The notes: generated by a model not told the origin, from the sequence alone. A stretch of 51,411 nt of DNA from Bdellovibrionota bacterium (GCA_041739995.1 JBGSMV010000052.1:1-51411); one strand, 5' to 3'; positions 24,937-41,242 are shown, numbered from the stretch's first letter. Program-made: numbers and translations.

Positions 24937-25911
24937 ATGCTTTTGGGGCAGTCAGAAAAAGGCAGTCGAGACGACCTTGTCAGCGAAGAGGATCGAATGG
25001 TCCCGGCTGCAATTACCGACACCGGCTGCGAGCGCGAGCTCAACGAAGACCGCTATGCGGTTGTTGAGGGCGCCTCGGGTCTCGCGTGGATCGTATGCGA
25101 TGGAATGGGAGGAGCAACTGGCGGAGAGTTGGCCGCGCAGCTCGCGATTGATGCTATTCGCAGAGATCTTGAAAATCTTCCCCCGCGACCTTCTGGGGAT
25201 GCGTTACGCGATGCGATCCTTGAAGCGAATCGAATCATTGTGCTTCGTAGACAGAATCAGGCCTTTGCACAGATGGGAACCACCATCGTAGCGGCAATGT
25301 TTGACGGGCCTGAGGTTGCGGTCGCAAACGTAGGCGATTCACGCGCATATCTCATTCGCGAAGGTGCAATTCAACAGCTCACTACTGATCACACTTTTGT
25401 TCAAGATCTGGTGGACCGCGGGCAGATTCAGCTCGAAGACGCACTTTCCCATCCACAGGCGCACATCCTTACTCGCGCAATTGGTTCTGAGCCTGCGCTC
25501 GAAGTCGATCTCACGCGGTATTGGGTCTGGGACTCCGAGAATGGGGAGCAGCCCGACGTTCTCGTCCTTTGCACCGATGGACTCTATAGCCAGGTGAGCG
25601 AAGTAGAGGTTGCGGCGATTGTTACCGACGAAACGCCGCAGAGCGCATGTGTGAAAATGGTTGAGTTGGCGAAGGCGCGAGGAGGATTCGATAATATCTC
25701 ACTTGCCATCGTTCCCCTCGGGGGCCAACTGCGACAAGAGCCTCCACCAGGATTTGACCCGCAGCGTGCCCTTGAACGGAAAATGCCCAAACGTAAGTCG
25801 CGCAATAACGCGAGAAGTCTACTCAGAACGATGCTGATCGTCATGGTACTTTCGATTCTAGCGGCGGTGTTGACAGTTGTTGGGGTCCTTACTTTTGGTT
25901 TCGGCCAATGA
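24937..25911 (+). CDS. Stp1/PrpC-type PP2C Ser/Thr phosphatase with C-terminal TM
   Basis: NED, CDGMGG, MGTT, NVGDSRAY, TDH, ILTRAIG, CTDGL, DNIS. Confidence 0.93.
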   Translation: MLLGQSEKGSRDDLVSEEDRMVPAAITDTGCERELNEDRYAVVEGASGLAWIVCDGMGGATGGELAAQLAIDAIRRDLENLPPRPSGDALRDAILEANRIIVLRRQNQAFAQMGTTIVAAMFDGPEVAVANVGDSRAYLIREGAIQQLTTDHTFVQDLVDRGQIQLEDALSHPQAHILTRAIGSEPALEVDLTRYWVWDSENGEQPDVLVLCTDGLYSQVSEVEVAAIVTDETPQSACVKMVELAKARGGFDNISLAIVPLGGQLRQEPPPGFDPQRALERKMPKRKSRNNARSLLRTMLIVMVLSILAAVLTVVGVLTFGFGQ

Positions 25912-25991: not shown

Positions 25992-26729
25992 ATGGCAAAC
26001 GACAAAAACCTCCATTTTGACGAGGGTGCAAGCGAACATGATGGTGAAAGTGACACTGAACATGCGCCGCGAGCCCGCAACCGCACGGTAATGCTCACCC
26101 CAGACATTACCGGACAAGTACGAGCACGACTTGCGAAGGAACTCGATCCTGCTTCTGGGCATGGTGGCGAAGGCCTGCATGGTGGCGGAGCCGGCGGAGG
26201 CTTTGTGCCAGTAGCGCCACGACGCGGCAATGTCGAGGCACCTGTGGCAAGTCGAGCGCCGGCAGCTCCGGCACATAGCGAACCGAGGCCCCTAGGTCGT
26301 GCGGCACCCGCCTATTCTGAACCGCCGAAGCAGGTAGCTGTCGCTCATGCTCCCGACGGAGATCTGATGGAGTGGAAGAAACTTGCCCCAGTAGTGGGCG
26401 TTTTAGTGACCTATGACCGAGATCCTAACGGAGAAATTTACCCGCTGAGAAGTGGTCGTTTGATTGTAACTTCAGAGATGCCTTCGGGAGGAAATTTTCT
26501 TTACCTCGAGGATGAGAGCGTCTCTTCCATGCATGCCATCATGCGAATAAGCGACGACGCAAAACTGCAGGTGCTCGATCAGCTCTCTGAGCATGGCACT
26601 CAAATTCGCAGAGCAGATGGATCGGAGGAGGTGAGACTCTCAGGCGACAAGGCTGAGGTGCATCACGGCGACGAGATTTCGTTCGGTGAGCGGCGTTTCA
26701 CTGTGTGTATTCTTCCGAAGCGCGACTAG
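25992..26729 (+). CDS. FHA-domain protein with disordered N-terminus
   Basis: VSSMHA, DQLSEHGT, VHHGDEISFG; AAGGAG RBS. Confidence 0.8.
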   Translation: MANDKNLHFDEGASEHDGESDTEHAPRARNRTVMLTPDITGQVRARLAKELDPASGHGGEGLHGGGAGGGFVPVAPRRGNVEAPVASRAPAAPAHSEPRPLGRAAPAYSEPPKQVAVAHAPDGDLMEWKKLAPVVGVLVTYDRDPNGEIYPLRSGRLIVTSEMPSGGNFLYLEDESVSSMHAIMRISDDAKLQVLDQLSEHGTQIRRADGSEEVRLSGDKAEVHHGDEISFGERRFTVCILPKRD

Positions 26730-26790: not shown

Positions 26791-28434
26791 ATGGCGGATG
26801 AGCACCTCATTAGCTTGCAACCCGGGACAGTGATCGCCGGGCGCTACGAAGTGGTGAAGTGCCTTGGTCAAGGCAGCATGGGACTCGTGTATGCATGCCG
26901 CCACCGAGAGCTTCAGGGTCACCTGTTTGCGCTTAAGGTGTTGTTCCCCGAGGTTGCGCAAGATCGGGTTGCCGCTCAGCGCTTTATGAACGAGGTGGTA
27001 GCTTCGTATAGTGTCTCGCACCCGAATGTAGTGAGAGCCTACGAATATATTCGAGACGGCGATTTAGTTGCTTACGCCATGGAGTATGTCGGCGGGGGAG
27101 ATCTCGCGGACCGACTGGGAAATCGCGAGCAGCTTCTCACCATTCCTGAAATAGTGCGGTTGGTGAGCCAGATGTGCCTTGGAGTACAGGCTATTCATCG
27201 CGCCGGTATTGTGCACCGCGATCTTAAGCCCGAGAACATTTTGATCACCAAAGATGGGCAAGTGAAGATTGCTGACTTTGGTATTGCACGTACGGGTCAT
27301 GGGCCGAAGCTTACCGAACATGGCGGAGTGGTCGGGACTATCGACTATGTAAGCCCAGAGTACATGTTGAATGCGCAGGTAGATTGGCGTTCAGATATCT
27401 ACGCGCTCGGCATCCTCGCCTATGAAATGACTACCGGCGAATCGCCGTTTCGCGGTGACAGCGTGTACGCCACGATGACCAAGCGACTAAAGTCCGATCC
27501 GGTTCCGCCGAGTCAAATCCGTTCTGAGTGTCCTCCAGAGTTGGATCGTATTATTTTTCGAGCAATGCACCGCGAGGTGGAGCAGCGCTATCAGGCCTCC
27601 TTTGAGATGTATGAAGATCTTGCACGGTTTATGCCTGAGCAAGTATCGAGGATGGGAGTCGAACCCCTTTCCTATGCGGGGCAGCCGTCCACAGCGTCGG
27701 TTGGAGACGGGGCGCGCGCAGCCAACAGCGTATCAGAGCACGCGCATGGAGCATCCTCAGGTGGAGTGGGCATGGGGGTTTCACCAGGCGGATTCATTGC
27801 CCCTGGCCTCGGAGCTGATTCCAGAGGAGTGGCGCTGGCCTCGACGCCATTTGACGATACCCAGATAGAAACGTCGACCGAGGGAGGACGGGCACCACGT
27901 TATTCGTGGGAGCGAGAGCAGCGTAGGGGCGGTCCGGTAGAGAGTAGAAAGACTTCACCTGAGCCGCGGGTGGCGGCTGATACACAAATCAATAACATCG
28001 CGAAGCAGTTCGCTGACGAGGATCCTGACGCCACTTTGCATGAACCGGTCAAGATGGAGTCCATGTTGTCGCCAAACGTTGTGGCGGATACATGGGATCG
28101 CGAGGGACGTCCTTCGCCGGTTATAAGAATTCCCTCCACCGGAATATCAAACGATCGGATGCGACGTCTTTCTCAAGAGATCGATCAAGGAAGCCGGTCC
28201 ATGTGGGTGGATGCCGTTACTTTGCTGGTGGCGATTGTGATTGGAATTGGCGTTGGATTTGCTCTCCTTAAGATATTCGCCCCGCATTTGCTGAGTCGAT
28301 CGGTGGCGGTTCAGGCGCAGGACGGCCCTAGTCGCTTGGCCCTTGGGGACCCTGTTTTTGCCTTCCAGGGAGGGTGCCAAGGCACAATTTTTGATTGCAG
28401 CGAACCTGTAGGCAGAGACGGGATAAATGCTTAG
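26791..28434 (+). CDS. Hanks-type Ser/Thr protein kinase, membrane anchored
   Basis: LGQGSMGLVY, ALK, HRDLKPEN, DFG, GTIDYVSPE, SDIYALG; TM segment near the C-terminus. Confidence 0.95.
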   Translation: MADEHLISLQPGTVIAGRYEVVKCLGQGSMGLVYACRHRELQGHLFALKVLFPEVAQDRVAAQRFMNEVVASYSVSHPNVVRAYEYIRDGDLVAYAMEYVGGGDLADRLGNREQLLTIPEIVRLVSQMCLGVQAIHRAGIVHRDLKPENILITKDGQVKIADFGIARTGHGPKLTEHGGVVGTIDYVSPEYMLNAQVDWRSDIYALGILAYEMTTGESPFRGDSVYATMTKRLKSDPVPPSQIRSECPPELDRIIFRAMHREVEQRYQASFEMYEDLARFMPEQVSRMGVEPLSYAGQPSTASVGDGARAANSVSEHAHGASSGGVGMGVSPGGFIAPGLGADSRGVALASTPFDDTQIETSTEGGRAPRYSWEREQRRGGPVESRKTSPEPRVAADTQINNIAKQFADEDPDATLHEPVKMESMLSPNVVADTWDREGRPSPVIRIPSTGISNDRMRRLSQEIDQGSRSMWVDAVTLLVAIVIGIGVGFALLKIFAPHLLSRSVAVQAQDGPSRLALGDPVFAFQGGCQGTIFDCSEPVGRDGINA

Positions 28435-28606: not shown

Positions 28607-29914
28607 ATGAAGCTTCTCATTGTAGATAACACCACCGAAGCGCAGGCGTTTTGCGCGAAGCGCATTGAGGCCTTTAACCAGGCTGACATGGAAATGCTTG
28701 ATCTGAAGGTCAAGCTCGTTGGCGAGCGCGAAGCGGGTGACCGCATCGCCGAAGCCGATGTGCTGGTTCTTGGAGCGGGGCTTTCCGATCGAGCAGTAGC
28801 TCTCGCTCGGCAGTCCCTCGCGGTCGCCCCTTGGCTTCATATTGTCATGTTCGTAACGGACGAAGCCTATGGTGGGGGAGCCTTTCGGCAGGCGCACTCG
28901 GCTGGTGTTCGAAAAGTATTCCCGGATAGCGCAAGCCCTCTTGATTTTCTCCAAGAGCTTGTTGCCATTCACGCAGAATTTCGCCGTGAAGGTAGGACTC
29001 GAGAAGGTAGGGTCATTGCGGTTACTCACGCCAAGGGTGGAGTAGGCGCAACCTCTATTGCCGCAGCATTGGGCGAAGTGTGTAGCGTCTATAATCGCCG
29101 CACTCTGCTTTGGGATCTCGACGTGGAGACGAGAGATTTAAGCCGATCTCTCACGGTTAATGGCGTTGAAGCCAAAGTCGTAAGCGCTTGGGTGAATGGA
29201 TCGAGAGAGATATCACGAGAGTCTCTGCGAGACGCAGTTATTCCTATCAGCACCGAAGTCTCAGTACTGATGCCGCCGGATCGCATGGCGGAGTCGATGG
29301 ACCTTGTCTGTCATACCGATGGAATGACTATCGCTCAGCGCGTCGTTGAACTTTCACGAGTGCTCTTCGATGTGGTGATAGTAGACACTGGGGGCAGGCT
29401 TGGACCTGCGACTGGGACCATCATGCGTCTTGCTGACGTAGTCTTAATAGTGATTGACGACACTATTCTGGGGCTCACTGCGGTGGATCTCTATCTGACC
29501 TTTGTGAAGACCCTGGTGGGAAGCACCGATCGGCTGATGTTCTTGGTTAATCCGTACTCTGGAGCCCTGTTGGGAGTCGAGCAGATAATGGCTGAGCTCG
29601 AACCGGCGCATCATCTTGGAGAGGCCCCTTGGCGGCTGCCCCCGGTGCCCAACGACCAAAAAGCAGCTCTATGGCCTGGAAGCGGGCGGACTTTGTACAG
29701 CATGGGACAGAAAGGCACTCGCGAAAAGCTAGAACGCATTGCGCGTGAGCTTGGAGTGATAGATCCCCGCGCAGGCGAGCAGGAAGGGGCTCCACCGCCC
29801 GGTGCGGCCGGTGGGGGCTGGTTACAGCGTCTTTTTGGTTCGAATCAACCTAAGAGGGGGGAGGGAGCTTCTAGCGGCTCTGGAAAAGAGGTTCCCCTTA
29901 TCGGTAATAAGTAA
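28607..29914 (+). CDS. cpaE: TadZ/CpaE: atypical receiver + MinD/ParA-like ATPase
   Basis: REC-like N-terminus; deviant Walker A AKGGVGAT; LLWDLD, VIVDTG; directly upstream of flp/cpaB/tadA. Confidence 0.8.
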   Translation: MKLLIVDNTTEAQAFCAKRIEAFNQADMEMLDLKVKLVGEREAGDRIAEADVLVLGAGLSDRAVALARQSLAVAPWLHIVMFVTDEAYGGGAFRQAHSAGVRKVFPDSASPLDFLQELVAIHAEFRREGRTREGRVIAVTHAKGGVGATSIAAALGEVCSVYNRRTLLWDLDVETRDLSRSLTVNGVEAKVVSAWVNGSREISRESLRDAVIPISTEVSVLMPPDRMAESMDLVCHTDGMTIAQRVVELSRVLFDVVIVDTGGRLGPATGTIMRLADVVLIVIDDTILGLTAVDLYLTFVKTLVGSTDRLMFLVNPYSGALLGVEQIMAELEPAHHLGEAPWRLPPVPNDQKAALWPGSGRTLYSMGQKGTREKLERIARELGVIDPRAGEQEGAPPPGAAGGGWLQRLFGSNQPKRGEGASSGSGKEVPLIGNK

Positions 29915-29922
29915 GCTCTGTA

Positions 29923-29939
29923 TTGGCCCACAAGTTGCT
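29923..29939 (+). promoter_or_regulatory. Candidate sigma54 -24/-12 promoter
   Basis: TTGGCCCACAAGTTGCT: GG-N10-GC, close to the TGGCAC-N5-TTGCW consensus; intergenic, facing flp. Confidence 0.5.
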
Positions 29940-30468
29940 TCTACTAAAGTTTTTGAGGCGAGCGGTCGAATTTGACTTGCAGCGCTACTCGGAAGCGGTA
30001 GTCTTACACTCGAGTTTGCTTGCGCACTTTATAGCTCAGAATTCTCTGTAATTTTGAGTGGTTGAGTGCAAAGTTGAAGGTGAATTTGAGCTATATTCGT
30101 TGCGATTGTGACGTTCGTAGCTCGCAGAATTTACCAGATACGCAAGTTTATGACTGTGTGGGGATTAGAGTAGCTCTGTGGGGCAGAAGTTGGTCCTCTT
30201 TCTAGTTCTGATGTGTTTTTCCAACTCAGCTGCGGCTGATGTGGCGACGTACATAAGGGGCTAGACGGTAACCAATTAGTCTCATAGACTTTTTGATCGC
30301 TGGCGCTCTTCTGTGCTGGGCTTGTAACTCTTGATCTCCGGAGGAGCTTTTAGGGCTGTTTCGGGGGTCTGGGAGGGGGTTCGGCGCTGTAGTGAAGCTA
30401 GATCGAAAGAGCGAAGCTAAAATTAGAAGATTGTCGGCGATTATTATGCCGCTTTGTAAGGAATACGT

Positions 30469-30663
30469 ATGGACGAGATGAAGAAAATTGAGAATGTGAC
30501 CGATATTAAACGTGAGAAGGAGCGTGCTGCCAGTCTTGTTGAGTACGTGCTGCTTGTAGTGCTTATCGCACTTGCTGCAGTAGTAGTGCTTCAACTGTTT
30601 GGACAGACCGTTTCTGGGAAGTTCTCGCAAATTAACTCGACGCTGACAGGAACTAACTCATAG
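30469..30663 (+). CDS. flp: Flp family type IVc (Tad) pilin
   Basis: 64 aa; charged leader, A|ASLVEY followed by a hydrophobic helix, ending KFSQINSTL; AAGGA RBS. Confidence 0.9.
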   Translation: MDEMKKIENVTDIKREKERAASLVEYVLLVVLIALAAVVVLQLFGQTVSGKFSQINSTLTGTNS

Positions 30664-30685
30664 TTCGAGTTTTTTGATTGCTCTA

Positions 30686-30718
30686 TCTCCGGTGGTTGGC
30701 ATGTCTAGCCACCGGAGA
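30686..30718 (+). terminator. Strong hairpin after flp (terminator or mRNA-stabilising stem)
   Basis: TCTCCGGTGGTTGG-CATGT-CTAGCCACCGGAGA: 14-bp stem with 2 GU pairs; no clear U-tract. Confidence 0.55.
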
Positions 30719-31029
30719 AGGGCAGATTTAATACTTTGGTTTGATGACTCGGCCATTAGTTTAGTTTTTGAGAGTCATAAAGTCTCAGCTCGTGCGATTG
30801 CTAGGCTGAGATTGTTATTGGCGGTCTTTTTGTTTTCTCTGACCGCATGCCCCTGAGGTTTTCAGGGAAGGTTTTTTGGGGAGTGCATAGGCTTTTGCGG
30901 CGCGAGTTTTCGCCTCGATTTTGTCTTTCGTCCAGTCGCAGTTGCTGATGGACGGAGCAGGTCGCGGTTAAAGTGAGCGGTGTAAAGTGACCGTTTGGCC
31001 ATAAAGGGTTTTTTGAATGACGGGGGCGT

Positions 31030-31917
31030 ATGTCAAGGCATTTTGGGACAATTGGAGTTTCGCGGAGATCTGATAAGACCAGGTTGATGGTCATTGTCGG
31101 AGTCTTTTTAATTGTCACCTGTCTCGCGATCGCGTTTCTCGCGCTCTATGCCGGAGCTTCCGCTCCCGCATCCGATCCAGTCAAAGCGGTTGATGTAGCA
31201 AACGAGCCGCCGCCGGTCAAAATGATCGACGTGCTTGTGCCCGCACGTGACATCGATGCAGGCGCTCAACTAGAGCCCGCAATGTTTAGAATGGAATCTC
31301 GACCTCAGGTAGGCGTTTCTCCTCGTGTGGTAGTGAGCTTCGAGGAGCTCAAAGGGCAGTTCGCCCGATCTCTTGTGGTAGGCGGCCAGCCCCTACACCG
31401 CGATTTTATGACCAGCGTGAGGCCGACGAGTGCCATCACGGCAAGCATTCCGGAAGGATACCGAGCAGTCACGATTAGCGTGGACGCCCGTAGTGCCGTT
31501 GAGGGTTGGGTAAGGCCTGGTGCCCGAGTCGACGTGATGTGGCTCTCTAACGTGCGAGGCCGAGGCGGCATCACTCGAATTGTGCAGAATGCGCGCGTGC
31601 TGTCAGCTGAGCGCCAGACGCAGACTAATCAGCAACAACCCGGCATGCCGATCCCATCTACGGTGACGCTACTGGTGACCTCAGAGGATGCGGCGAAGAT
31701 CAGCCTCGCGGTTACTAACGGGAGCATCACTTTGCAACTTCGTGGCGATACCGACGTTAAGGCTAGTGAGCAATCGACGGTTATCACTATTGACGATTTG
31801 CTTGGAAAGACTGGCCCCGCAGGCCCCACCAGTGACTGTGAAGGCACTGTAGTTATCGGAGGCGCTCGCTATTGCGTAAAAGCAGGCGGACGTCTTGAGC
31901 CGGAAGCGGGGAACTAG
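31030..31917 (+). CDS. cpaB: Flp pilus assembly protein CpaB/RcpC
   Basis: N-terminal TM, SAF domain (VLVPARDIDAG), IPEGYRAVTI, GWVRPGARVDV, VTLLVT..A.KI.LA...G.I.L.LR. Confidence 0.92.
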   Translation: MSRHFGTIGVSRRSDKTRLMVIVGVFLIVTCLAIAFLALYAGASAPASDPVKAVDVANEPPPVKMIDVLVPARDIDAGAQLEPAMFRMESRPQVGVSPRVVVSFEELKGQFARSLVVGGQPLHRDFMTSVRPTSAITASIPEGYRAVTISVDARSAVEGWVRPGARVDVMWLSNVRGRGGITRIVQNARVLSAERQTQTNQQQPGMPIPSTVTLLVTSEDAAKISLAVTNGSITLQLRGDTDVKASEQSTVITIDDLLGKTGPAGPTSDCEGTVVIGGARYCVKAGGRLEPEAGN

Positions 31918-32139
31918 GATAGGAGTCGTGATGGCGCGGGGGTGCTTTTCACGCGGGCCGTAGAGTTACGAGACTCCTGGCTGGCATAAAAGGTTGTTGG
32001 AGAGAATCTTGCACAGGCTTTAAGCAGAGCAATCTGTTGAGCCCCGCAGGATCGGTTTTAGGGGAGGCATGCTCGGGAGTCGTGTTGACGTTCGGTCAAT
32101 GCGCAAGAGCATGCACGGGTTGAATGAGAGGTTTTGATC

Positions 32140-33660
32140 ATGAGTGGCACAGAGGATGGCCGACCCGGCGGGGATCGTGATTCACTATTAGACCTGTTCT
32201 CTACCCGTGGAAACGGGAAGGGAGAAAAGGGCGGACCTCAAGCCAGCGCTTCCAGTGCCGCGATGTCGAGTGCGGTGGCCACGCGTGCATCGTCCAATTC
32301 ACTTTCCATGGGCGGATCGGCCCCAAGCACCTCGCGCCAAACAGCAGCCACGCGCGGAAAGCTTTCTCCCCTAGCCAGTACCATTCTTCGCGAAGCTCGC
32401 AGAGAACTCGGAAGTGAGTTTAATCTCGGATCTGCTGATGGCAACGTCAATATTGCTGAGTCAACTATCGCCGCGGCGGTAGACCGGGTTCTTAGGAAAC
32501 GCTCAGAGGCGATAGATGACCTAGAGCGCGCACACGTCATTATCCATCTCCAGAAAGATCTGATGGGGTGGGGCGTATTACAGCCTTTGATTGATAACAA
32601 AGAGGTTACGGACATTCACGTCTATGACTATCAAACCGTAGTACTGCAGCGCGGAAAGATAAGTGAAACCACCGGTCTGCATTGGCCGAACGCGCAAGCA
32701 TATAATGCCTTCCTTGATCGGTTGTTGATGCGGCTTGGTAAGTCGCTGTCCACTCAGCAGCACACTGTGGACGGCTCCTTCCCGAACGGCATACGTATAT
32801 GCGCGATTCATGAGAGCGTGTGCGGTACGCGTGGCCCGCTTCTTTGTATTCGTGTTCCTCGTATCATGGAAGTGACCCTCGAGAGCTTGGTCACCTACCA
32901 GGTAGCGCCGCCATTCATTGTGCAATATCTGGCAGCCTTGGTGAGAAGTGGTTTGGTCACCATGATGATCGCAGGAGAAACGGGTACCGGTAAAACTACT
33001 CTTGTAAAGTGTCTTGGGACTCAATTCGGTCCTGATGAGTCGATTGTGTCTGTAGAAGATACCCCTGAAGTAAACTTCTCTCATCCCTACTTTCGCTCTC
33101 TGGTGTCTCGGCCACCGAACATCGAAGGAATTGGTGAAGTGACTCTTCAAGAGCACATTAAGACCACGCTTCGTATGACACCGACTCGAGTTATCTTGGG
33201 AGAAATGAGAACGCCATTTTCGGCCGAAGCGTTTCTAGAAAGCGCTCAGACGGGACACGTCGGGATGTCCACAGTGCATGCCAGAAATGCGCGTGAAACC
33301 CTTGTGCGTTTGGAGAGTTTGCTTGGTCGAGCTCAGAAATCAGTATCGATTGACATCATACGCCAACAGATTGCCTTAGCGGTGGATGTGGTGGTTTGGA
33401 TGTTCCGAGAGAAAGGGCTGGGTAAGCCGCGAATTGGTGAAATCGTGGAAGTAGGACACTTCGTAGAAGGACAAGTTCAGGTCAGACCTATGTTCTCGAT
33501 TTCTCGCACCGGGGAGCGACCATTGTGGAGAGTCGACTCTTGGACAAGCTCATTTGAAGAAGTACTTGAGGCCAACGGGATTCGCCTCGGCGATTCACCA
33601 CCTGAAATTGGATTTGGGAGCACGGCCGATGGTTCAGGAACACGTACTGCACGGCGATAG
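32140..33660 (+). CDS. tadA: TadA/CpaF pilus assembly ATPase
   Basis: GWGVLQPLI, Walker A GETGTGKTT, Asp box EDTPE, Walker B ILGEMR, His box TGH..STVHA. Confidence 0.92.
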   Translation: MSGTEDGRPGGDRDSLLDLFSTRGNGKGEKGGPQASASSAAMSSAVATRASSNSLSMGGSAPSTSRQTAATRGKLSPLASTILREARRELGSEFNLGSADGNVNIAESTIAAAVDRVLRKRSEAIDDLERAHVIIHLQKDLMGWGVLQPLIDNKEVTDIHVYDYQTVVLQRGKISETTGLHWPNAQAYNAFLDRLLMRLGKSLSTQQHTVDGSFPNGIRICAIHESVCGTRGPLLCIRVPRIMEVTLESLVTYQVAPPFIVQYLAALVRSGLVTMMIAGETGTGKTTLVKCLGTQFGPDESIVSVEDTPEVNFSHPYFRSLVSRPPNIEGIGEVTLQEHIKTTLRMTPTRVILGEMRTPFSAEAFLESAQTGHVGMSTVHARNARETLVRLESLLGRAQKSVSIDIIRQQIALAVDVVVWMFREKGLGKPRIGEIVEVGHFVEGQVQVRPMFSISRTGERPLWRVDSWTSSFEEVLEANGIRLGDSPPEIGFGSTADGSGTRTARR

Positions 33661-33675
33661 CGAGAGGGGAGACGC

Positions 33676-34659
33676 GTGACAATCGGACTAGTAATCGTTC
33701 TCGTAGCAGTGGCGCTGGTAGCGACCATTGCGCTGGTGGTGCTGCTTGGCACCGGTTCTGGTGCGCGCGCAGGCTTGGGTGGAAGTTATAAAAATCTAAA
33801 GGCCAGTCAACGCTTCGGCACATTTGCTGACGATGGAGACTCAAGTGGCGCAAAGAAAAAAGATAAGCCTGATATTTATAGCGCGGTCGGAGCTGAGCGA
33901 AAGGTTGCGAGCGCGAAGCTCACTCTGAAGCGTCGCCTAAAATATGCGCAACTTGCGATTCCGGTGGTGGCCTTTCATGTGCTGGAAGTGGGGATTAGCC
34001 TCGTCGCGTTCATTGTAGTGAATTTGTATTTTAACGTGATCCTGCAGCTGGCCTCCTTGTTGGTCGGTCCAATCATCATGCGTTGGCTGGTGAATACCAG
34101 AATCGACCGACGAATGAAGCGTTTTGATGCAGATTACCCGCAGTTTCTTTTGTCCCTGGTAGGTCTTTTAAAGACAGGCATGAACCCGGTTCAAGCCCTT
34201 GAAGCTGCTGCTGCAGGCCTAGAGGGCACATCTCTCGTTCGCGAAGAGGTAGAGATGATGATTGATCGCCTTAAATTTGGCGTGAGCGAGGATAAGTCCA
34301 TTGGTGCTTTTGGCGAGGACATTTACCATTCTGAGATTGAACTCTTCGTACAAGCGCTACTGCTTAGTAGGCGAGTGGGTGGAACTCTTTCCGACACGCT
34401 TGAGCGTCTGGCAAAACAGGTACGCAAACGACAGTTTTTTAGGTCTCAAGCGAATGCTGCGGTGGGTATGCAACGCGGATCGATTTACATCATTATCTTC
34501 ATGCTCATCTTGATGCAGTTTTACATGTACTACGTATATCCGTCGATGATTGAAGCAGGCTTGAAGAGCGACATGGGTTGGCAGATTTGGCAGGCCGGTA
34601 TCATAGTCATTCTTTTGGGAATTTTCTGGGTACGACAGGTAACCAAGATTCGAGTGTAG
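33676..34659 (+). CDS. tadB: TadB inner-membrane platform protein (T2SSF domain)
   Basis: TM pattern; L.SL.GLLKTG.N, RRVGGTLSDTLERLA; follows tadA. Confidence 0.85.
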   Translation: MTIGLVIVLVAVALVATIALVVLLGTGSGARAGLGGSYKNLKASQRFGTFADDGDSSGAKKKDKPDIYSAVGAERKVASAKLTLKRRLKYAQLAIPVVAFHVLEVGISLVAFIVVNLYFNVILQLASLLVGPIIMRWLVNTRIDRRMKRFDADYPQFLLSLVGLLKTGMNPVQALEAAAAGLEGTSLVREEVEMMIDRLKFGVSEDKSIGAFGEDIYHSEIELFVQALLLSRRVGGTLSDTLERLAKQVRKRQFFRSQANAAVGMQRGSIYIIIFMLILMQFYMYYVYPSMIEAGLKSDMGWQIWQAGIIVILLGIFWVRQVTKIRV

Positions 34660-34717
34660 AGAAGGTCTGTAGCGTAAAGGCTACGGAACTTAGAGAGACC
34701 GAAGGTTTTAGGAGAGT

Positions 34718-35641
34718 ATGGAAGGCGTTTCGCTCATAGGACTAGCTGCTATCATGGGAGCCTTCCTTTCTGGAGGTTTCCTGCTCTATTTTCTTATACC
34801 GAAACGCCAAACAGATCTCCGCTCTCTCATGAACTCAGGAACTGCGGCTTATTCTGCGGGAGCCGCTCCGCGCAAGCGCAGCGAAACCGCAGAGGATGAT
34901 TTTGCGCGAGCCAAGGCACAGGCTAAGAAGAAGGCTAAAAAGAAGGATCCGGTTACTCTTGCCGAGAGGTTCTTCCATGCAGGAATATTTAGTGACCAAG
35001 AGCGTAAGCAGTTTCAACAACTTCGAATGCTCGCGCCCATTGTGTTGCCGGTGGTGATGGGACTGGTGATTGCAACCGTAAATTTGCAGTACGCACTTTA
35101 TGCGGCAGTTCTGGGGCTGCTTCTGGGGCTGCAATTGCCGTTTTCAATTCTTGATCGACGAATTAAGCAGCGTGCAGAAGACATTCTGTTCTTTTTACCC
35201 TTGGTGGTTGAGCAGATAGTAATTGGAGTGAGTAGTTCACTGGACGTAGGTCCGTGCTTGCAGCGCGTGGTGCAGATGGCGGATGAACGCGATAGCCATA
35301 ACCCGGTGACCGAAATGCTGCGACATGCGCAAACATACGCTAAGTCGGGCACTTCGATGAGTGACGCTTTGATGGATGTGGGGCGATTGTCCGGAAATAC
35401 AGAACTAAAGCATACCTTCATGTCGTTGTCGCAAGTATCGAAGCATGGTGGTGAAATCACCAGGCAGCTTCAGGAACTGGCGGACGCAGTTGCCGGACAG
35501 CGAGAAACGAAAATTGAAGCCAAGATTAAGCGCCTTGAGTTGGAAGCAACCGGTCCCGTAGGTCTGGTGTTCATGGGATTCATGTTGATTTTCACCGTTG
35601 GCTTCATAATCCAACTTATGGAAGCATTCGCAAAGACTTGA
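34718..35641 (+). CDS. tadC: TadC inner-membrane platform protein (T2SSF domain)
   Basis: LP..VEQIVIGVSS, LSQVSKHGG.I..QL.ELA; TM pattern; follows tadB. Confidence 0.85.
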   Translation: MEGVSLIGLAAIMGAFLSGGFLLYFLIPKRQTDLRSLMNSGTAAYSAGAAPRKRSETAEDDFARAKAQAKKKAKKKDPVTLAERFFHAGIFSDQERKQFQQLRMLAPIVLPVVMGLVIATVNLQYALYAAVLGLLLGLQLPFSILDRRIKQRAEDILFFLPLVVEQIVIGVSSSLDVGPCLQRVVQMADERDSHNPVTEMLRHAQTYAKSGTSMSDALMDVGRLSGNTELKHTFMSLSQVSKHGGEITRQLQELADAVAGQRETKIEAKIKRLELEATGPVGLVFMGFMLIFTVGFIIQLMEAFAKT

Positions 35642-35773
35642 TGCGCGTATGCTCGACCTAGACCGCGATCTGGTGAGCGCCGGAACTACCCGCCATAATA
35701 TGCGGGGAGAGTATTCGGAGATGAGGGTATTCGGGAGGAGACGCAAGGCTACAGGGATGGTAGGTTTTTTGCT

Positions 35774-37876
35774 GTGAGACGACTACGTGTTAGCGACTTT
35801 CTTCTTGCGGCTTTCCTCATCGCGGTCACCGCGCTCTTGCTCGTGCCGCTTCCGACTCTACTGCTCGATTTGCTACTGGTAGTGAACCTTTCATTTTCCT
35901 TGGTGCTCTTGCTCGCGGGGCTGTATCTCCCCAATGCGCTGGCCTTGCTCGCATTCCCCAGCATTTTGCTTCTCACCACTCTACTGCGGCTCAGCCTCAA
36001 CGTCGCCTCGACTCGGCTGATCTTAAGTCAGGGCGACGCCGGAGAAGTCATTCAATCCTTTGGAACCTTTCTGGTCGGGGGAGAGATCATTGTTGGCGTC
36101 GTCATCTTTCTGATTCTGACCGTGGTGAACTTTGTGGTGGTGGCGCGTGGATCGTCTCGTGTTTCAGAGGTAGCGGCTCGTTTCGCGCTTGACGCGCTTC
36201 CCGGGAAGCAAATGGCCATAGACGCTGATTTGCGCGCAGGCTTGATCACTTCACTAGATGCGCAGCGCCGCCGCGAAGATCTAAGAAAAGAGTCTCAGTT
36301 GTATGGCTCCATGGATGGCGCCATGAAGTTCGTTCAGGGCGATGCTATCGCAGGGCTCTTCATTATTGCCGTCAATATTATCGGAGGTATGTATCTCGGA
36401 GTTCGCGGAGGAATGTCGATCACTGAGGCGGTTAGTGCGTACACTACCCTGACCGTCGGCGATGGTCTCGTACACCAGATTCCCGCCATTCTTATTTCTA
36501 TTTGCGCAGGAATTATCGTCACGCGAGTTTCCTCAGGCGAAGGATCTTCTTTGGGGAGCGACGTTCAGACGCAGCTCTTTGCGCGACCTGGCACTATCGT
36601 GTTTGCAGGCGGGCTTATTATTGTGCTTGGGTTGACCCCTGGACTACCCCCATTGCCGTTTCTGGTAGTTGGAATCTGTTTGGGCGGAACTGGAGTGTTT
36701 CAGCTCTATCGACAAAAAATGCAGTCGCCTGCCCCGGTTGGCGCCGAGACTTCGATTGTGATTGCGGAGCAATCAGCGCATGGCATGCAGACTCTGGACG
36801 GCAGGAGCGCTGAGGGTGAGCGGCTCTTACAAATCTCGGTCTCGACAGGTGAGCTATATCGAATCTTTCGTGCAGAACAGAACAGCTACCGTGCTTGGTG
36901 GCAGAGGCTGGAAACTGATTTCTTCCAGGAGAGCGGACTAAGGCTTCCCCCGTTGCGCTTAGGTTCCGATCCGTCGCTTGGCTTTGGAGGATATCGCATC
37001 ATCGTGCGTGGCACGGTTGTCCTGCAGGACCAGGTGATCCCGGATGCTTCGATTGTGGAAGTGAGTCCGCATGCGGCGCATGAGTTTGGTATGCAAGTTG
37101 CCGCCGAGGTTCCGCATCCCGTAAGTGGTAGTTTGGTCTCATGGGTAGTGCTATCCAGCGCAGATCGGTTGGTGTTGGAAGCCGCGGGGATTGCTTCCTT
37201 TGATCCCATTCAGTACATCGCGCTGCGTTCAGCAATGTTTTTTCGAGCCTTTCCCGAGGAGCTGTTGTCTGTATCCGAGGTCATGGAGATCGAAGCGATG
37301 CTAGAGAAGCAACATCCGGGACTGCTCTCTAGAACCTTCAATAGAGAATTTATCTCGCCGGCACGTTTGACCGAAATTCTACAGCAGTTACTTCGCGAAG
37401 GTGAGAGTATCCGAGAGTCCAAGCAGATCGTTGAAGCGATAGCGACGTATTGTTCGACAGAAGGTGCATCGATGGCACGTGAGGGCGATTTTGATCTAGA
37501 TGATGTGGTTTCGTTCGTGCGACGTTCTCGACGGCGGCATCTGGTGGGCAGGTATTTGTCCCCACGGCGTACCCTACGAGTATTTTCTTTACGTGACGAT
37601 ATCGCTGAGGGCTTTTTGATGGCGCCGGCGGTTGAGCCACACGGAGTGGTGGCGCTACGTCCAGAGGACAGTGAGCGTACCAAGCAGAGTCTTAAGCAGG
37701 CCCTTTCCAACCTCGGACGTTCGGGGGCCGGAGGGGCTGTATTGGTGGTGGATGCGGAAATCCGGGCTCGCGTGATTGCCTTTATTCGACAAGTGGGGTT
37801 GCAGCTACCAGTTTTTACACCAGCCGAGCTTGATCCTTCAATCCCGATGGAACCGGTCGGGGTTGTGGGGCTCTAG
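35774..37876 (+). CDS. sctV: FHIPEP-family type III export gate, injectisome SctV/LcrD-type
   Basis: RVSEVAARFALDALPGKQMAIDADLRAG, KESQLYGSMDGAMKFV.GDAIAG, LTVGDGLVHQIPA. Lacks the FlhA N-terminal extension and the GHxG insert. Confidence 0.85.
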   Translation: MRRLRVSDFLLAAFLIAVTALLLVPLPTLLLDLLLVVNLSFSLVLLLAGLYLPNALALLAFPSILLLTTLLRLSLNVASTRLILSQGDAGEVIQSFGTFLVGGEIIVGVVIFLILTVVNFVVVARGSSRVSEVAARFALDALPGKQMAIDADLRAGLITSLDAQRRREDLRKESQLYGSMDGAMKFVQGDAIAGLFIIAVNIIGGMYLGVRGGMSITEAVSAYTTLTVGDGLVHQIPAILISICAGIIVTRVSSGEGSSLGSDVQTQLFARPGTIVFAGGLIIVLGLTPGLPPLPFLVVGICLGGTGVFQLYRQKMQSPAPVGAETSIVIAEQSAHGMQTLDGRSAEGERLLQISVSTGELYRIFRAEQNSYRAWWQRLETDFFQESGLRLPPLRLGSDPSLGFGGYRIIVRGTVVLQDQVIPDASIVEVSPHAAHEFGMQVAAEVPHPVSGSLVSWVVLSSADRLVLEAAGIASFDPIQYIALRSAMFFRAFPEELLSVSEVMEIEAMLEKQHPGLLSRTFNREFISPARLTEILQQLLREGESIRESKQIVEAIATYCSTEGASMAREGDFDLDDVVSFVRRSRRRHLVGRYLSPRRTLRVFSLRDDIAEGFLMAPAVEPHGVVALRPEDSERTKQSLKQALSNLGRSGAGGAVLVVDAEIRARVIAFIRQVGLQLPVFTPAELDPSIPMEPVGVVGL

Positions 37877-37972
37877 CCTAGGGAGGGGGAGCCTGAGGAA
37901 CGGGATTTGTATGCAACCCGTCGATCTGAGCTCTGTTGGCAGGAACAGTCCTAGAGTATATGTAATCGAGAA

Positions 37973-40477
37973 ATGACTGAAATTGTTCGTAAATCACCGG
38001 TGGTGAAGGGGGTAGTCGCCGACTACTTCAATATTGAAGCGCCGCTGCTCTCAACTCGATCTGGAGATCTTGGTCGGGCGGTAGATCGATCGAGGGAAGA
38101 GCCAGTTCTGCTTTGGGTGATGCGGCATAGCCTCTCTCTGCAAACTGACGCCGCTGATCGGTTTCTTTCTCGCCTTCAAAATCTTCAGGGAGTCTCCCCC
38201 ATCGGGCAGATGTTGTTGAATTTCGCCGTGGATAGCACTGGAGTGGGTTTTGCTTCTCTCAAGCCGCTCGATGGAGGCCCGCTAGAGTCCGGAATCAAAG
38301 GGGAAAGTCCTAGCCGCGCAGGGTTGGCTGAGGGAGAGCGCCGTTTCGTCGGTGCCGTACGCCTGATTGAATCTATCCATCAAGCAGGGCAAATCTGCGG
38401 CGATATCGCTCCCGGCTCATTCTGGGTGGACCGAGCGGGTGAGCTTGTGTTTATTGGCGTGCTCGGGGCTTTTGATAGTGATGCGCAGGCTACCTCGATT
38501 CTTCCTTCTCCTGACGTTGCACAGTTTCTTGCGCCTGAGCAGGTTACCGGCGGACTTTCTCCTGCAAGCGATGTGTTTGCGTTGGGCGTTCTTGGGTATT
38601 TTCTTCTGTCCGGAATGTTTCCATTTGGATGGCAGGCGTCGAATGTGGCTGAGGGAGAGACCGCTGGAGGTCTTGGTTTCCAGCCATTGTCAGAGGTAGT
38701 CGCAGGCGCGCCTTTATGGGCAGATGAAGTGATGGCGCGTTGCCTCGATCCTGATCCAGCCGCTCGTTTCTCCACAGCGGGGGAAATGTTGAAGGGAATT
38801 GCGGAGGCGCGTCAGAAAGCTTTCTCTCAAGCGGGCCTCCCGGTTCGCAAGTCAGGGCAGCTTACTGCTTCTCGCAGTGGCTCGGCCGCCAATGTGACTA
38901 CAAGTCGATCCGTTGGGCCTCGTTCTGGCACGGAAAATTCTCAATCCGGCGCGCCTTCGGCAAATGAGGACGGCAAGCCCTCTAGTTTATTCGCCAGATT
39001 GCGACTTCCTATCTCGGTTGTGGCGGTCTTTGTCATGTCAGCAATCGTTGGTGCTCAGCTTACCTCGCGAGGGGCGGGTTCTTCGTCCGAATCTTCGCCG
39101 GACGCTGGGCAGCATAAGGAAGTGCTCACCGATAACGCTCCGATGCAGCGTGCTTTGGACGCGGTGGGGAGTAGCGAAGCTGAACTTAGTGATGCCGCGG
39201 CCCGTTTCGATTTGCTGGTATCTTCTGACGATCCGCTTGCGCATGTGGTGCTAGTCAAGAGCGCCGTCGAAGCCCGGTCGCCACAGCTTAGGAATCTTGC
39301 GGAGCGTTCTCTCATTCAGCGAGTTCGAAGACTTGGTATGCTGCGCAGCGCGGAGCAGCTCAATCAGTGGTTACGGACCATCGCTTCGGGCGCGACTCCT
39401 GCGGCGTATGAACCATTGCTTAAGGCGCTAAACGCCACTTTGCCGCTTGATGCTCGCACTGCCGAACTTCGTCGTGCCTACATCGCAGACGCGCGAGTGA
39501 CACTCAGAATGGCGGCTTCAATTGCCTTGGATTCTCAGGACATGAACGAATACCAGGAGTTGCTGTCTCAGCTGGTGGGAGATTCGCTTGGACTGGAGGA
39601 CGCCGCTTCGCATGCACCGCTCGCCCTAATTATGGGACACCCTGAGCTCGCTCTGATCTTTGGGGATGATGTTGTTCAGCGGCGCTCAGAGTTGTCTGAC
39701 GCTGACGTACTTTGGCTTTTGGGGGTGCTTGGGACCCGTAATGATTACAATGTCCGCGCGTTTGCAAGTTTGGCAGTAGAGCGTGGTGTCCTTGCGCCGC
39801 TTCGACAGGAATACCTTGAGTTGGTACGAGATCGACAAGACGTACCTCCTGAGGTTTTGAATGCTCTGGTGAAAGGGGCAGCCGGATCTATCAGCGCTGA
39901 AGATATTGGTGCAATTGGAAGGTGGTTCGATAAAGATGTCGAGCGCATTTTGCTGGTTGTGTGCGCAGATGTAGCCGACGAGAACTTAAAGATCGAGGCT
40001 TTTGATACTCTGGCGGGCAAGACGATGACGATTCAGCCAAGTGCGATGCTGGTCGACTGGGTACGTCGCAATGCCTGGGAAAATCGCGCGCAATTTGTGC
40101 GGTCAATTGGGGTCCTTGGAAATCTCAACAGAGTGCCTCAGGAAGAGGCAAAAGAAGCGTTTCGTGCGTTCGAGCCGCTGCTTAAAGATTCGCGCGTAAT
40201 TAACGCAATGCTCGATACAAAAGACCCATTCATTACTAAGCTCATTCTTGAGCGTTACTCGAGTTCTCTCGGACTTGGTGCACTTCTGTCTATGCTTCGA
40301 AATGATGATCCAAGTGTTCGCATATTGGCGCTACAGTCTCTAAAGAACTTCAATGACGTTGGGGCGTTGAAACTCCTGCTTGATAGCTACGAGAAGGAGA
40401 AGGACGAGTCGGTAAGGAAAGTATATCGAGACAATTTCTGGATGATTCGAGAACGCGAAGCAAAGAATGCCAATTAG
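37973..40477 (+). CDS. Membrane pseudokinase: degenerate Ser/Thr kinase domain, TM, large helical (HEAT-like) extracytoplasmic domain
   Basis: FLAPEQ, SDVFALG, G..PF and CL..DP..RF retained. ICGDIAPGS replaces HRDLKPEN; no DFG or VAIK. TM at ISVVAVFVMSAIVGA. Confidence 0.8.
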   Translation: MTEIVRKSPVVKGVVADYFNIEAPLLSTRSGDLGRAVDRSREEPVLLWVMRHSLSLQTDAADRFLSRLQNLQGVSPIGQMLLNFAVDSTGVGFASLKPLDGGPLESGIKGESPSRAGLAEGERRFVGAVRLIESIHQAGQICGDIAPGSFWVDRAGELVFIGVLGAFDSDAQATSILPSPDVAQFLAPEQVTGGLSPASDVFALGVLGYFLLSGMFPFGWQASNVAEGETAGGLGFQPLSEVVAGAPLWADEVMARCLDPDPAARFSTAGEMLKGIAEARQKAFSQAGLPVRKSGQLTASRSGSAANVTTSRSVGPRSGTENSQSGAPSANEDGKPSSLFARLRLPISVVAVFVMSAIVGAQLTSRGAGSSSESSPDAGQHKEVLTDNAPMQRALDAVGSSEAELSDAAARFDLLVSSDDPLAHVVLVKSAVEARSPQLRNLAERSLIQRVRRLGMLRSAEQLNQWLRTIASGATPAAYEPLLKALNATLPLDARTAELRRAYIADARVTLRMAASIALDSQDMNEYQELLSQLVGDSLGLEDAASHAPLALIMGHPELALIFGDDVVQRRSELSDADVLWLLGVLGTRNDYNVRAFASLAVERGVLAPLRQEYLELVRDRQDVPPEVLNALVKGAAGSISAEDIGAIGRWFDKDVERILLVVCADVADENLKIEAFDTLAGKTMTIQPSAMLVDWVRRNAWENRAQFVRSIGVLGNLNRVPQEEAKEAFRAFEPLLKDSRVINAMLDTKDPFITKLILERYSSSLGLGALLSMLRNDDPSVRILALQSLKNFNDVGALKLLLDSYEKEKDESVRKVYRDNFWMIREREAKNAN

Positions 40478-40556
40478 TAGCGCCAACTAGTAATGTCGAA
40501 GAGTGAGCTCCCCACAGAAATCACCAACTGAAATCTATTTTTATATTTGGATTCTT

Positions 40557-41060
40557 ATGAAGAATTTAGTTCTCGCATTAGTCATCATTTTCCCCCTGTG
40601 CCTGATGGGTTGCTCCTCAGGAGTCAGCAGTGGCGCCTTAGTGGGGCGACCTGCGCCTTCCTATACTCCGTTCTTTATGGTCGGTGAAGACGCCTTGGTG
40701 CTTGAGCATCTGCGCGGGAAGAATGTGATTGTGCTGTTCTGGGCAAGCACGTGCGCGAAATCTCATACGGTAATTGAGGAGCTCAACTCTTACGTAAAGG
40801 CGCATCGTAAAGATCGTAATCTAGAAGCCATTGCGGTGAGTATCGATAAGAATGAGAACTTTGAGCGAGTCGAGCGCAAGATCGGAATTGGAAAGGTTGG
40901 AGAGTTGCGACACTCGTTTTCAGGAAATGATGACTATGATCAGGCCAAGGTTGCTTTCGAAGTGGACATTCTGCCAAGCCTCTTCGTGATAAACGAGGCA
41001 GGCACCGTAATCGCCTCTGGTACCGACATGGATACGGTGCGAGAGGCCCTCGGAAGCTAG
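40557..41060 (+). CDS. TlpA/ResA-like thioredoxin-fold lipoprotein with CxxS
   Basis: Lipobox LMGC; RGKNVIVLFWASTCAKS, AVSID, ILPSLFVINEAG. Confidence 0.8.
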   Translation: MKNLVLALVIIFPLCLMGCSSGVSSGALVGRPAPSYTPFFMVGEDALVLEHLRGKNVIVLFWASTCAKSHTVIEELNSYVKAHRKDRNLEAIAVSIDKNENFERVERKIGIGKVGELRHSFSGNDDYDQAKVAFEVDILPSLFVINEAGTVIASGTDMDTVREALGS

Positions 41061-41091
41061 CGTTCTGAGCGAGAAGTTCATTCGGGTATTC

Positions 41092-41167: not shown

Positions 41168-41242
41168 TCGCTCATCGAACGTCTCATTCAGGACATTAGA
41201 GAGGTTAGGACCGCCGGCTTGAGATTGATAGTGAAGTGATCC

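Follow-up and report, generated by a model that had tools for sequence, protein, structure and literature searches.

Gene content of the locus

The subject of this study is a cluster of genes for a tight adherence (Tad) pilus motor that is followed, on the same strand, by a gene for an export-gate protein of the kind found in type III secretion systems (T3SS). It lies in the genome of a Bdellovibrionota bacterium (GCA_041739995.1, sequence JBGSMV010000052.1). The stretch of DNA analyzed, referred to here as the window, is the whole of contig C47 (51,411 bp); the assembly (G000) has 3.81 Mb in 81 contigs, is 91% complete, and has a G+C content of 52%. Genes were assigned from open reading frames (ORFs) with Pfam and NCBIfam profile searches. 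Thirteen genes, all on the + strand, occupy 24.9-41.1 kb, from a PP2C phosphatase gene through a thioredoxin-like gene.

The Tad genes begin with one for a TadZ/CpaE-like ATPase of the ParA/MinD type with an N-terminal extension (28607..29914, +), which matched PF13614 and PF01656 and scored 49.7 bits against TIGR03815, under the cut-off; its identity in relatives was 60-76%. The gene for a 64-amino-acid Flp-type prepilin comes next (30469..30663, +). The score of this prepilin against PF04964 (31.4 bits, E = 1.6e-7) was 0.8 bits short of the Pfam cut-off of 32.2; the Flp motif is present, and a flp gene with the motif G|A(S/T/N)(L/M)(V/L)EY was found between tadZ and cpaB in 8/8 relatives examined. 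At the cleavage site of the window Flp, Ala replaces the usual Gly (ERAA|SLVEY), whereas Gly (KG|ASLVEY) was found in 10/10 copies from 8 relatives; this could reflect altered processing or a quirk of the lineage. The remaining Tad genes encode the periplasmic component CpaB/RcpC (31030..31917, +; PF16976 and PF08666; TIGR03177 at 143.8 bits against a cut-off of 71), a 508-amino-acid secretion ATPase of the TadA/CpaF type (32134..33660, +; PF00437; TIGR03819 at 205.6 bits, under the cut-off of 373), and the inner-membrane platform proteins TadB (33676..34659, +) and TadC (34718..35641, +), both matching PF00482. Residues 1-189 of TadA had no Pfam match at E<=0.01, so no FHA domain was detected there. 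TadA, TadB, TadC, TadZ/CpaE, CpaB/RcpC, and Flp, the components by which we recognized a Tad/Flp locus, were therefore all present together.

The tadC stop codon and the start of the next gene are separated by 132 nucleotides, in which no promoter-like or terminator-like consensus site was found, although such an absence is weak negative information. This next gene encodes a 700-amino-acid export-gate protein of the FHIPEP family, V1 (35774..37876, +; PF00771, 584.9 bits), and is followed by the gene for an 834-amino-acid single-pass membrane pseudokinase, PsK (37973..40477, +), with weak matches to PF00069 and PF13646. The gene order given in the initial annotation, cpaE-flp-cpaB-tadA-tadB-tadC, then a FHIPEP gene and a pseudokinase gene, was thus confirmed by the ORFs and both sets of profiles. 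Its statement that the window holds no other T3SS or flagellar gene, secretin, prepilin peptidase, or TadE/G gene also agreed with our Pfam search of all window ORFs of at least 150 amino acids, in which no further T3SS, flagellar, secretin, A24 peptidase, or TadE/G gene was found.

Type of the export gate

The V1 protein matched PF00771 over nearly its full length (profile positions 3-655 of 657) with 584.9 bits against a gathering threshold of 29.1. In the NCBIfam search it scored higher with SctV (TIGR01399, 564 bits; cut-off 692.25) than with FlhA (TIGR01398, 518.5 bits; cut-off 772.1), both scores being under the respective cut-offs. The best match in the PDB was YscV of Yersinia (7alw, 388 bits), and the FlhA entries reached at most 321 bits. 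There are three FHIPEP genes in the genome: flhA on C36, V1 in the window, and V2 (631 amino acids) on C5. V1 shares 33% identity with the FlhA of this genome and 35% with V2.

Two trees of FHIPEP proteins were built, one with FastTree from 122 sequences and one with IQ-TREE in quick mode (LG+G4) from 50 sequences. In both, E. coli FlhA and the FlhA proteins of the window's phylum formed one clade, and all other sequences fell opposite it with 100% support; the Tad-linked V1 copies formed a clade of their own inside the nonflagellar side, also with 100% support. This V1 clade sits beside a clade (98-99% support) of SctV proteins from Myxococcota, Acidobacteriota, Chlamydiales, the Planctomycetes-Verrucomicrobia-Chlamydiae (PVC) group, and proteobacteria. 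Limits of these trees are an outgroup of only 6-7 FlhA proteins, some long branches, and support values of the Shimodaira-Hasegawa-like kind only. V2 was a long branch without firm placement in both trees. V2 is also shortened, with about 50 residues of its cytoplasmic domain missing, and an SctJ gene adjoins its gene.

V1 contains the motifs DADLRAG and ESQLYGSMDGAMKFV. In the alignment of 122 FHIPEP proteins, the Arg of the first motif was found in 74/74 other SctV proteins and 38/40 Tad-linked copies, with Asn in 7/7 FlhA proteins; the Met of the second was found in 74/74 other SctV proteins and 39/40 Tad-linked copies, with Ser or Ala in 7/7 FlhA proteins, a FlhA sample of 7 sequences only. 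The two signatures by which the initial annotation had assigned the gate to the SctV type were therefore present, with residues that are diagnostic across the alignment, and the trees likewise placed V1 with the nonflagellar gates, apart from the FlhA of the phylum. Judged by the two trees, the motif residues, and the best structural match, the sequence of V1 is that of an SctV-type, nonflagellar gate. A flagellar role for V1 was considered and rejected; a full complement of flagellar genes, including a separate flhA (on C36, with flhB, flhF, flhG, and fliA), is present in the genome.

Conservation of the tadC-sctV junction

We then examined 124 species-representative genomes of the window's phylum, belonging to one class and 36 families; they represent one lineage and are not independent samples. 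V1 had a match in 123/124 of these genomes and TadC an orthologue (E<=1e-25) in 118/124. In 111/124 genomes tadC was followed directly by a FHIPEP gene (84/91 in the window's own order and 27/33 in other orders). For 85/111 the junction was read from match coordinates: the two matches share contig and strand, and the gap between them has a median of 65 nucleotides (range 11-582). For 26/111 it was established from retrieved DNA. The junction recurs in 111/124 related genomes, which is more than chance would give, and the adjacency reported in the initial annotation is therefore not unique to this genome. Of the 12/124 genomes not judged, four have contigs that end right after tadC, six are without an orthologue-level TadC, and the remaining two, whose assemblies are 55% and 70% complete, have only paralogue-level TadC matches. 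The sole genome lacking the junction was G001, where tadC is present and no FHIPEP or PsK match was found within 5.5 kb downstream.

The conservation extends beyond the junction itself. In a tblastn search TadB, TadC, SctV, and PsK were colinear in 30/30 of the best loci, and wherever a locus extends far enough past the gate gene, the next gene is psk. Across these genomes the identity of V1 drops to about 32%, with the protein at full length and without stop codons in all matches listed. The most diverged gates were those of family f28 (G013-G017, loci L162-L166), where the gene between tadC and psk encodes a protein of 574-685 amino acids that scores only 62-68 bits to V1 and retains little beyond the stretch RQSEV.SRFFLDALP. 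The function of this very diverged FHIPEP relative may have changed or been lost while its place was kept. In two genomes (G044, contig C5, and G047, contig C2) the contig that carries the Tad-SctV cluster has the flagellar fliP gene as well, at a distance of 1-10 kb upstream.

Because all of these genomes come from one phylum-level lineage, the junction could be nothing more than inherited synteny, an old accidental gene order that was never broken and has no bearing on function. We regard this as very improbable. The gene after psk varies by lineage (FHA protein, thioredoxin-like protein, S9 peptidase, or no match), whereas the tadC-sctV-psk junction persisted to about 30% identity with its short median gap. 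In addition, G063 and G089 carry second Tad loci without a FHIPEP gene, so tadC does not need such a neighbor. Outside the phylum, none of the retrieved SctV loci of Myxococcota, PVC bacteria, chlamydiae, and proteobacteria had Tad genes adjoining the gate; in Archangium the gate is located with sctRSTU.

Partner type III genes and the split cluster

Searches of the whole genome revealed three FliP-family genes with matching sets. The first set is flagellar (C60 and C36), with the full flagellar complement spread over C36, C53, and C60. The second, on C74, comprises genes for a FliO-like protein, SctR, SctS, SctT, SctU-N, a GAF histidine kinase, the C-terminal part of SctU, and an FHA protein. 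C55 carries the third, which comprises genes for three FHA proteins, SctJ, a FliJ-like (SctO) protein, SctQ, SctR, SctS, a protein at the SctT position (196 amino acids, four helices, no family match), and SctU-N. An extra SctN-like ATPase and its FliH-like (SctL) partner are encoded on C36. The genome therefore has the components of a core like the needleless T3SS* of Myxococcus: SctJ, SctQ, SctR, SctS, SctT (by position), SctU-N, SctN, and SctL. The gate had been described as lone in the initial annotation; that description did not hold, since there is a partner set on C55, SctN and SctL on C36, and a second nonflagellar set on C74 and C5. The same searches located V1 apart from the flhA of the complete flagellar set.

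Several details of these sets were noted. On C74 (41.7-53.3 kb) the GAF histidine kinase has 1176 amino acids, and its gene is inserted ahead of the separate gene for the SctU C-terminal part. The C5 region (11.5-18.2 kb) encodes a sigma factor, SctJ, V2, a TPR protein, and small ORFs (second-set loci L013, L014, and L017). The SctN-like/FliH-like pair (C36:17394-19518, - strand) is divergent from and beside the flhB-flhA-flhF-flhG-fliA operon; these are the only extra copies, and one SctN-like ATPase may serve two nonflagellar cores. The C-terminal domain of SctU is the region of autocleavage in other systems. Both nonflagellar SctU genes here encode the membrane part only, and the C-terminal domain is encoded by separate small genes on C74 and C42 (SctU parts at C55:25468-26157; C74:47018-47806 and 43180-43479; C42:68904-69116).

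In other orders of the phylum the C55-type genes lie directly beyond psk. A homologue of the 450-amino-acid FHA protein of C55 was found right after PsK in 20/20 assessable genomes of other orders. In G005, where the gap from PsK to this FHA gene is 21 nucleotides by ORF ends and 28 nucleotides between the matched stretches, a single-strand cluster of 23 kb runs from the kinase to SctU. Its genes encode, in order, the kinase, TadZ, Flp, CpaB, TadA, TadB, TadC, FHIPEP, PsK, a double-FHA protein, a zinc-ribbon/FHA protein, SctJ, SctQ, SctR, SctS, a 239-amino-acid protein at the SctT position, SctU-N, a 168-amino-acid protein, and a TPR protein (19 genes in total). The initial annotation had proposed a physically integrated Tad/T3SS hybrid. 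At the level of the genes this part of the proposal stood, as the Tad genes, sctV, and the T3SS core make up one same-strand cluster in other orders; it did not extend to most of the window's own order, where the cluster is split.

In the window's order we examined 23 genomes (the window genome, 20 genomes of 19 families, plus G047 and G055). A contiguous cluster was found in only 2/23, both of family f11 (G053 and G055); in 16/23 a thioredoxin-like gene comes after PsK, and in 5/23 another gene or no match. In both trees family f11 diverges first within the V1 clade of the order; by parsimony this basal position suggests that the contiguous form is ancestral and that a single break after psk occurred in the window's order. 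The window SctV is thus not a lone gate; it is one end of a broken Tad-T3SS supercluster. We considered whether C47 and C55 could simply be neighbors across an assembly gap and rejected this; on C47 there are 11 kb of unrelated genes after PsK (thioredoxin-like, S9 peptidase, tig, clpP, clpX, and lon), and in G058, a single contig, the two halves are 1.4 Mb apart.

The assignment of V1 to the C55-type set came from comparison of gene complements. G058 has neither V2 nor a C74-type set and has kept V1 and the C55-type set. Counts of FliP-family and FHIPEP genes per genome were mostly 3/3; in families f4 and f5 (G040-G043) they were 2/2, with the flagellar-type copies missing. Together, G058 and the FliP/FHIPEP counts tie V1, as judged from sequence, to the C55-type set. 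For G005, G007, G022, and G028 the counts are likewise two for the FliP family and two for FHIPEP, with no high-scoring flagellar FliP; these genomes and those of f4 and f5 seem to have lost the flagellum and retained both nonflagellar sets.

These data bear on a reading in which V1 is a gate co-opted as a Tad accessory, such as an ion-conducting or docking ring, while the C55 SctRSTU uses V2 or is idle. The fast evolution of V1, which is hardly recognizable in f28, its score under the SctV equivalog cut-off, and the finding that some genomes of genus g31 have three FHIPEP but two FliP-family matches are in its favor. However, the SctV motifs are kept in 38-40 of 40 copies in proteins that are full length and without stops among the listed matches, in other orders V1 opens a complete core cluster, G058 retains V1 and the C55-type set without V2, and V2 has its own SctJ neighbor on C5. 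We therefore consider co-option improbable.

The split also raises the question of whether the Tad and type III products are two separate machines that never touch, their genes being held together by a shared time or place of action, such as an attack pole, or by common kinase, phosphatase, and FHA control. The supercluster is split in most of the window's order with neither half lost, genes for FHA proteins, kinase, and phosphatase flank both halves, and in Myxococcus the corresponding loci are apart and the Kil pilus assembles without T3SS*, as described in the portions of PMC12075869 that deal with assembly. After the break, however, the neighbor that sctV kept was tadC, and not sctRSTU, in 21/21 split genomes of the order, which is not predicted by co-regulation alone, and nothing else in the region is as constant as the tadC-sctV-psk junction. 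On balance we judge it unlikely that the two never interact.

Secretins, peptidase, and minor pilins

The genome was searched for the parts that complete Tad and T3SS machines elsewhere. The only PF00263 secretins in this 91%-complete genome were GspD (with GspC/E/F/G, of the type II secretion system) and PilQ (after PilMNO, of the type IVa pilus); no RcpA/CpaC secretin of Tad or SctC secretin of T3SS was found. Across the 124 genomes there were two secretin matches in 102, one in 18, three in 3, and none in 1. These counts indicate that no secretin is dedicated to either the Tad or the T3SS half. The needle family PF09392 gave zero matches here, but control genomes were equally silent. A dedicated TadV/CpaA peptidase was not found; the one A24 peptidase of the genome is of the PilD type, with an A24_N_bact domain.

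Minor pilins were found elsewhere in the genome. The TadE domain (PF07811) had 20 matches, 16 of them over the cut-off, in at least 10 loci outside the window. Those on C57, C64, and C79 are triads of two small TadE-like proteins and a VWA or TadG-like (PF13400) protein of 500-780 amino acids, and those on C12, C23, and C40 are TadE-like pairs (TadE loci L194-L207). The triads resemble, in layout only, the three-protein "Tip" sets of the Kil pilus as these are described in part of PMC12075869. One TadE-like pair adjoins a gene for a kinase-receiver fusion, and another adjoins a GAF histidine kinase gene.

The pseudokinase and the phospho-signaling genes

The structure of PsK was modeled with AlphaFold2 on an alignment of 36 orthologues (mean predicted local distance difference test score, 85.6). 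The model has a kinase fold at residues 9-288, a Ser/Thr-rich linker predicted to be disordered (288-338), a single membrane helix (340-364), and an all-helical, HEAT-like repeat domain of about 450 residues at 379-833. All matches listed from a Foldseek search with the model were to kinase domains, the best being those of PknA and PknB at about 21% identity; the outer helical domain fell only into generic HEAT-repeat clusters of the protein atlas (score 0.90). Inspection by eye of the protein and of the 36-row consensus revealed no beta-3 Lys, HRD..N loop, or DFG Asp. There is a Trp at the Lys position, H..G...GD in the catalytic loop, and G..G.F in place of DFG. Because the catalytic residues of an active Hanks-type kinase are missing in both the protein and the family consensus, PsK is, by its sequence, classed as a pseudokinase.

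The 450-amino-acid FHA protein of C55 has two Pfam FHA stretches and a C-terminal membrane helix and would be tail anchored, with no outer domain. One could speculate that PsK and this protein together correspond in topology to an SctD divided between two polypeptides. A complex prediction for PsK residues 1-290 (36 rows) with residues 1-345 of the C55 SctD-like FHA protein (13 rows) gave no answer, neither for nor against binding. In type VIIb secretion, EssB/YukC has a cytoplasmic pseudokinase, one membrane helix, an outer domain, and FHA partners, a topology like that of PsK, and is likewise a constant member of its secretion gene cluster; the outer domain of PsK differs in being a HEAT-like solenoid, and no sequence or fold match to EssB/YukC was among the Foldseek matches listed for PsK.

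Three genes for phospho-signaling proteins precede tadZ. The first encodes a PP2C-type Ser/Thr phosphatase (24880..25911, +; PF00481/PF13672) whose C terminus carries a membrane helix (hydrophobic stretch, residues 311-343); a homologue was also found upstream of the cluster in G047, the relative noted above, and the phosphatase is likely to be part of a phospho-signaling module. The second encodes a 245-amino-acid FHA-domain protein (25992..26729, +; PF00498), whose homologue lies immediately 5' of the kinase gene in L020, L043, G018, G047, and G055. The third encodes a 547-amino-acid Hanks-type Ser/Thr kinase that looks active (26791..28434, +; PF00069, 181 bits) and has one membrane helix (residues 468-502); its homologue lies immediately 5' of TadZ in L020, L043, G005, G018, G047, and G055. 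By analogy with PpkA/PppA/Fha1, which control type VI secretion through threonine phosphorylation, the kinase, phosphatase, and FHA proteins may gate assembly. The membrane Hanks-type kinase, PP2C phosphatase, and FHA protein of Pseudomonas aeruginosa, associated with the contact-dependent type VI envelope machine, are mentioned in this respect in a cited passage of PMC8460266; the machine there is a different one, and the signaling role proposed here is drawn from the domain set only.

Comparison with known systems

The closest known system is the Kil pilus of Myxococcus xanthus together with its needleless T3SS*. In the sections of PMC8460266 that describe it, Kil is a Tad-like system encoded at two loci, rich in FHA domains, with an FHA-fused ATPase (KilF) and a short secretin. 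In those of PMC12075869, Kil recruits T3SS* (mxan_2434-2464), the two are co-localized, the pilus tips need T3SS*, and a larger complex is proposed; the review PMC12428579 terms the association hypothetical in its passage on the subject. The locus studied here resembles Kil/T3SS* in that a Tad-type motor goes together with a type III core for which no secretin was found and which would likewise do without needle and translocon (Seef 2021, PMC8460266; Herrou 2025, PMC12075869, for the portions that cover these parts), and, going by the same portions, in its many FHA-domain proteins and in several minor-pilin sets away from the motor genes. It differs in that here sctV belongs to the tad operon, which in most orders is continued on the same strand by the complete T3SS core, whereas the Myxococcus loci are separate (mxan_2434-2464 versus 3102-3108 and 4648-4661, as listed in part of PMC12075869), in keeping with the separate loci given in the initial annotation. 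Unlike Kil, the cluster has no Kil-type secretin and no FHA fusion on TadA, the FHA domains being on separate proteins, and it has a membrane pseudokinase as an added fixed component.

With the Cpa system of Caulobacter, the Tad system of Aggregatibacter, and the hit-locus TAD of Bdellovibrio bacteriovorus (PMC5430801) the window cluster shares the presence of TadZ, Flp, CpaB, and TadA-C in one operon, and TadE/TadG-type minor pilins, as in canonical Tad/Flp systems, are present in the genome. Unlike those systems, it has no RcpA/CpaC secretin and no dedicated TadV, and it has genes for a FHIPEP protein and a pseudokinase in addition. The B. bacteriovorus TAD operon, in the passages of PMC5430801 and PMC3818213 that describe it, includes RcpA and no FHIPEP protein. 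An identification of the window cluster with that hit-locus operon was rejected, given the RcpA carried there and none found here.

The gate itself resembles Yersinia YscV/LcrD (7alw) in FHIPEP architecture and signature residues, with a full-length best structure match; it differs from injectisome SctV proteins in its identity of about 35%, its separate outside clade, its score under the SctV cut-off, and the lack of any injectisome secretin found in the genome. With FlhA it shares membership of PF00771; it has Arg and Met where FlhA has Asn and Ser or Ala, and its neighbors are tad genes. Full-text literature searches, outside of which lay subscription-only papers, found no description of tad-sctV linkage, and term look-ups in PMC10469934 and PMC11656739 likewise gave none.

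A proposed coupled Tad-T3SS machine

The explanation that we favor, and hold to be probable, is that the window contains the Tad half of an ancient two-part cluster whose halves act as a coupled contact-dependent machine. One part would be a Tad/Flp-type pilus motor (TadZ, Flp, CpaB, TadA, TadB, and TadC). The other would be a needleless, secretinless type III core of SctV, the SctD-like FHA protein, SctJ, SctO, SctQ, and SctRSTU, with SctN and SctL encoded elsewhere. In the window's order the cluster would have broken after psk, leaving sctV and psk with the tad genes and the rest on what is now C55. The export gate would be produced together with the Tad platform, and both assemblies would be placed at one envelope site for coupled contact-dependent delivery, as suggested for Kil and T3SS* of M. 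xanthus. The scattered TadE/TadG triads could serve as exchangeable pilus tips, and the kinase, PP2C phosphatase, FHA proteins, and PsK may trigger or scaffold assembly through threonine phosphorylation. Joint assembly of the halves and their control by phosphorylation are the parts of this explanation that we infer.

Several observations weigh against it. V1 diverges much faster than its neighbors (43-62% identity, versus 61-76% for TadA or TadZ), which could mean relaxed or changed function, and every Sct-like part scores under the NCBIfam curated cut-offs. Co-transcription of the Tad genes with sctV is suggested by short gaps only, and the split in most of the window's order indicates that the halves are kept without need of co-transcription. 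Neither half has a secretin, so crossing of the outer membrane is left unexplained. The best matches of TadA in Archangium gephyra and Corallococcus have only 28% identity (137 bits) and TadA has no FHA fusion; the likeness to Kil is therefore a functional and architectural analogy and not close kinship, and a contact-dependent, possibly predatory role, such as the killing proposed in the initial annotation, would be suggested by that analogy.

A stronger form of the coupled machine can be imagined, in which the Tad platform, the SctV-RSTU gate, the SctD-like FHA protein, and PsK make up one secretinless composite apparatus; the gate would load effectors or tip proteins onto the pilus, by which these would reach another cell. 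We put this forward as a tentative and rather doubtful possibility. If it were true, the composite machine would be a new class of secretion apparatus, a hybrid ancestral to the phylum, and the hard-wired form of what Kil and T3SS* are merely suspected of in Myxococcus.

Whether the Kil pilus and T3SS* of Myxococcus make one complex is an open question, for which this lineage is a natural experiment: the whole lineage keeps a type III gate gene in a pilus operon, usually with both machines in one cluster. The locus thus offers independent genomic support for a Tad-T3SS partnership outside Myxococcota. The contiguous clusters define a minimal part list of about 19 genes, in which neither a secretin nor a needle gene was recognized, and bring forward two unstudied fixed components, the membrane pseudokinase and the tail-anchored multi-FHA protein. 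The dated rearrangement reveals which gene stays with which. For the early history of nonflagellar T3SS, it is of interest that this SctV clade lies outside the clade of Myxococcota and all sampled injectisome gates.

Regulatory sites and neighboring genes

Consensus scans of the region detected fewer promoter-like sites than in shuffled sequence, and a scan of 24000-41500 against Rfam at gathering thresholds gave zero matches. A terminator-like hairpin followed by a T-run was found 3' of flp (30851..30867, +); it may be an attenuator, although this is weak, the regional count of such sites not being above shuffled expectation. The sigma-54 pattern had 29 matches in the window versus 27 expected by chance. 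One of these, a -24/-12-like site with one mismatch (29924-29939), lies just past tadZ, about 530 nucleotides 5' of flp, and is a hint only.

The last same-strand gene of the locus encodes a thioredoxin-like protein of the TlpA/redoxin type with an N-terminal hydrophobic segment (40503..41060, +; PF13905, PF00578, and PF08534); the convergent gene for the S9 peptidase comes next. A thioredoxin-like gene was found directly after PsK in L020 and L043 as well. On the other side, 5' of the phosphatase gene, a 732-amino-acid protein is encoded at 21781-23979 that has five membrane segments in its N-terminal region and a receiver domain at the C terminus, and the - strand carries two sigma-54 activator-like genes at 18111-21055.

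In three metagenome-assembled genomes of unclassified bacteria (L068, L088, and L096), the SctV proteins branch at the base of the clade of other SctV proteins. A PP2C phosphatase gene lies 4-6 kb upstream of these gates, which are without Tad genes, and in two of the three FHA proteins are encoded downstream. These loci may represent another lineage with a phospho-regulated, atypical T3SS.

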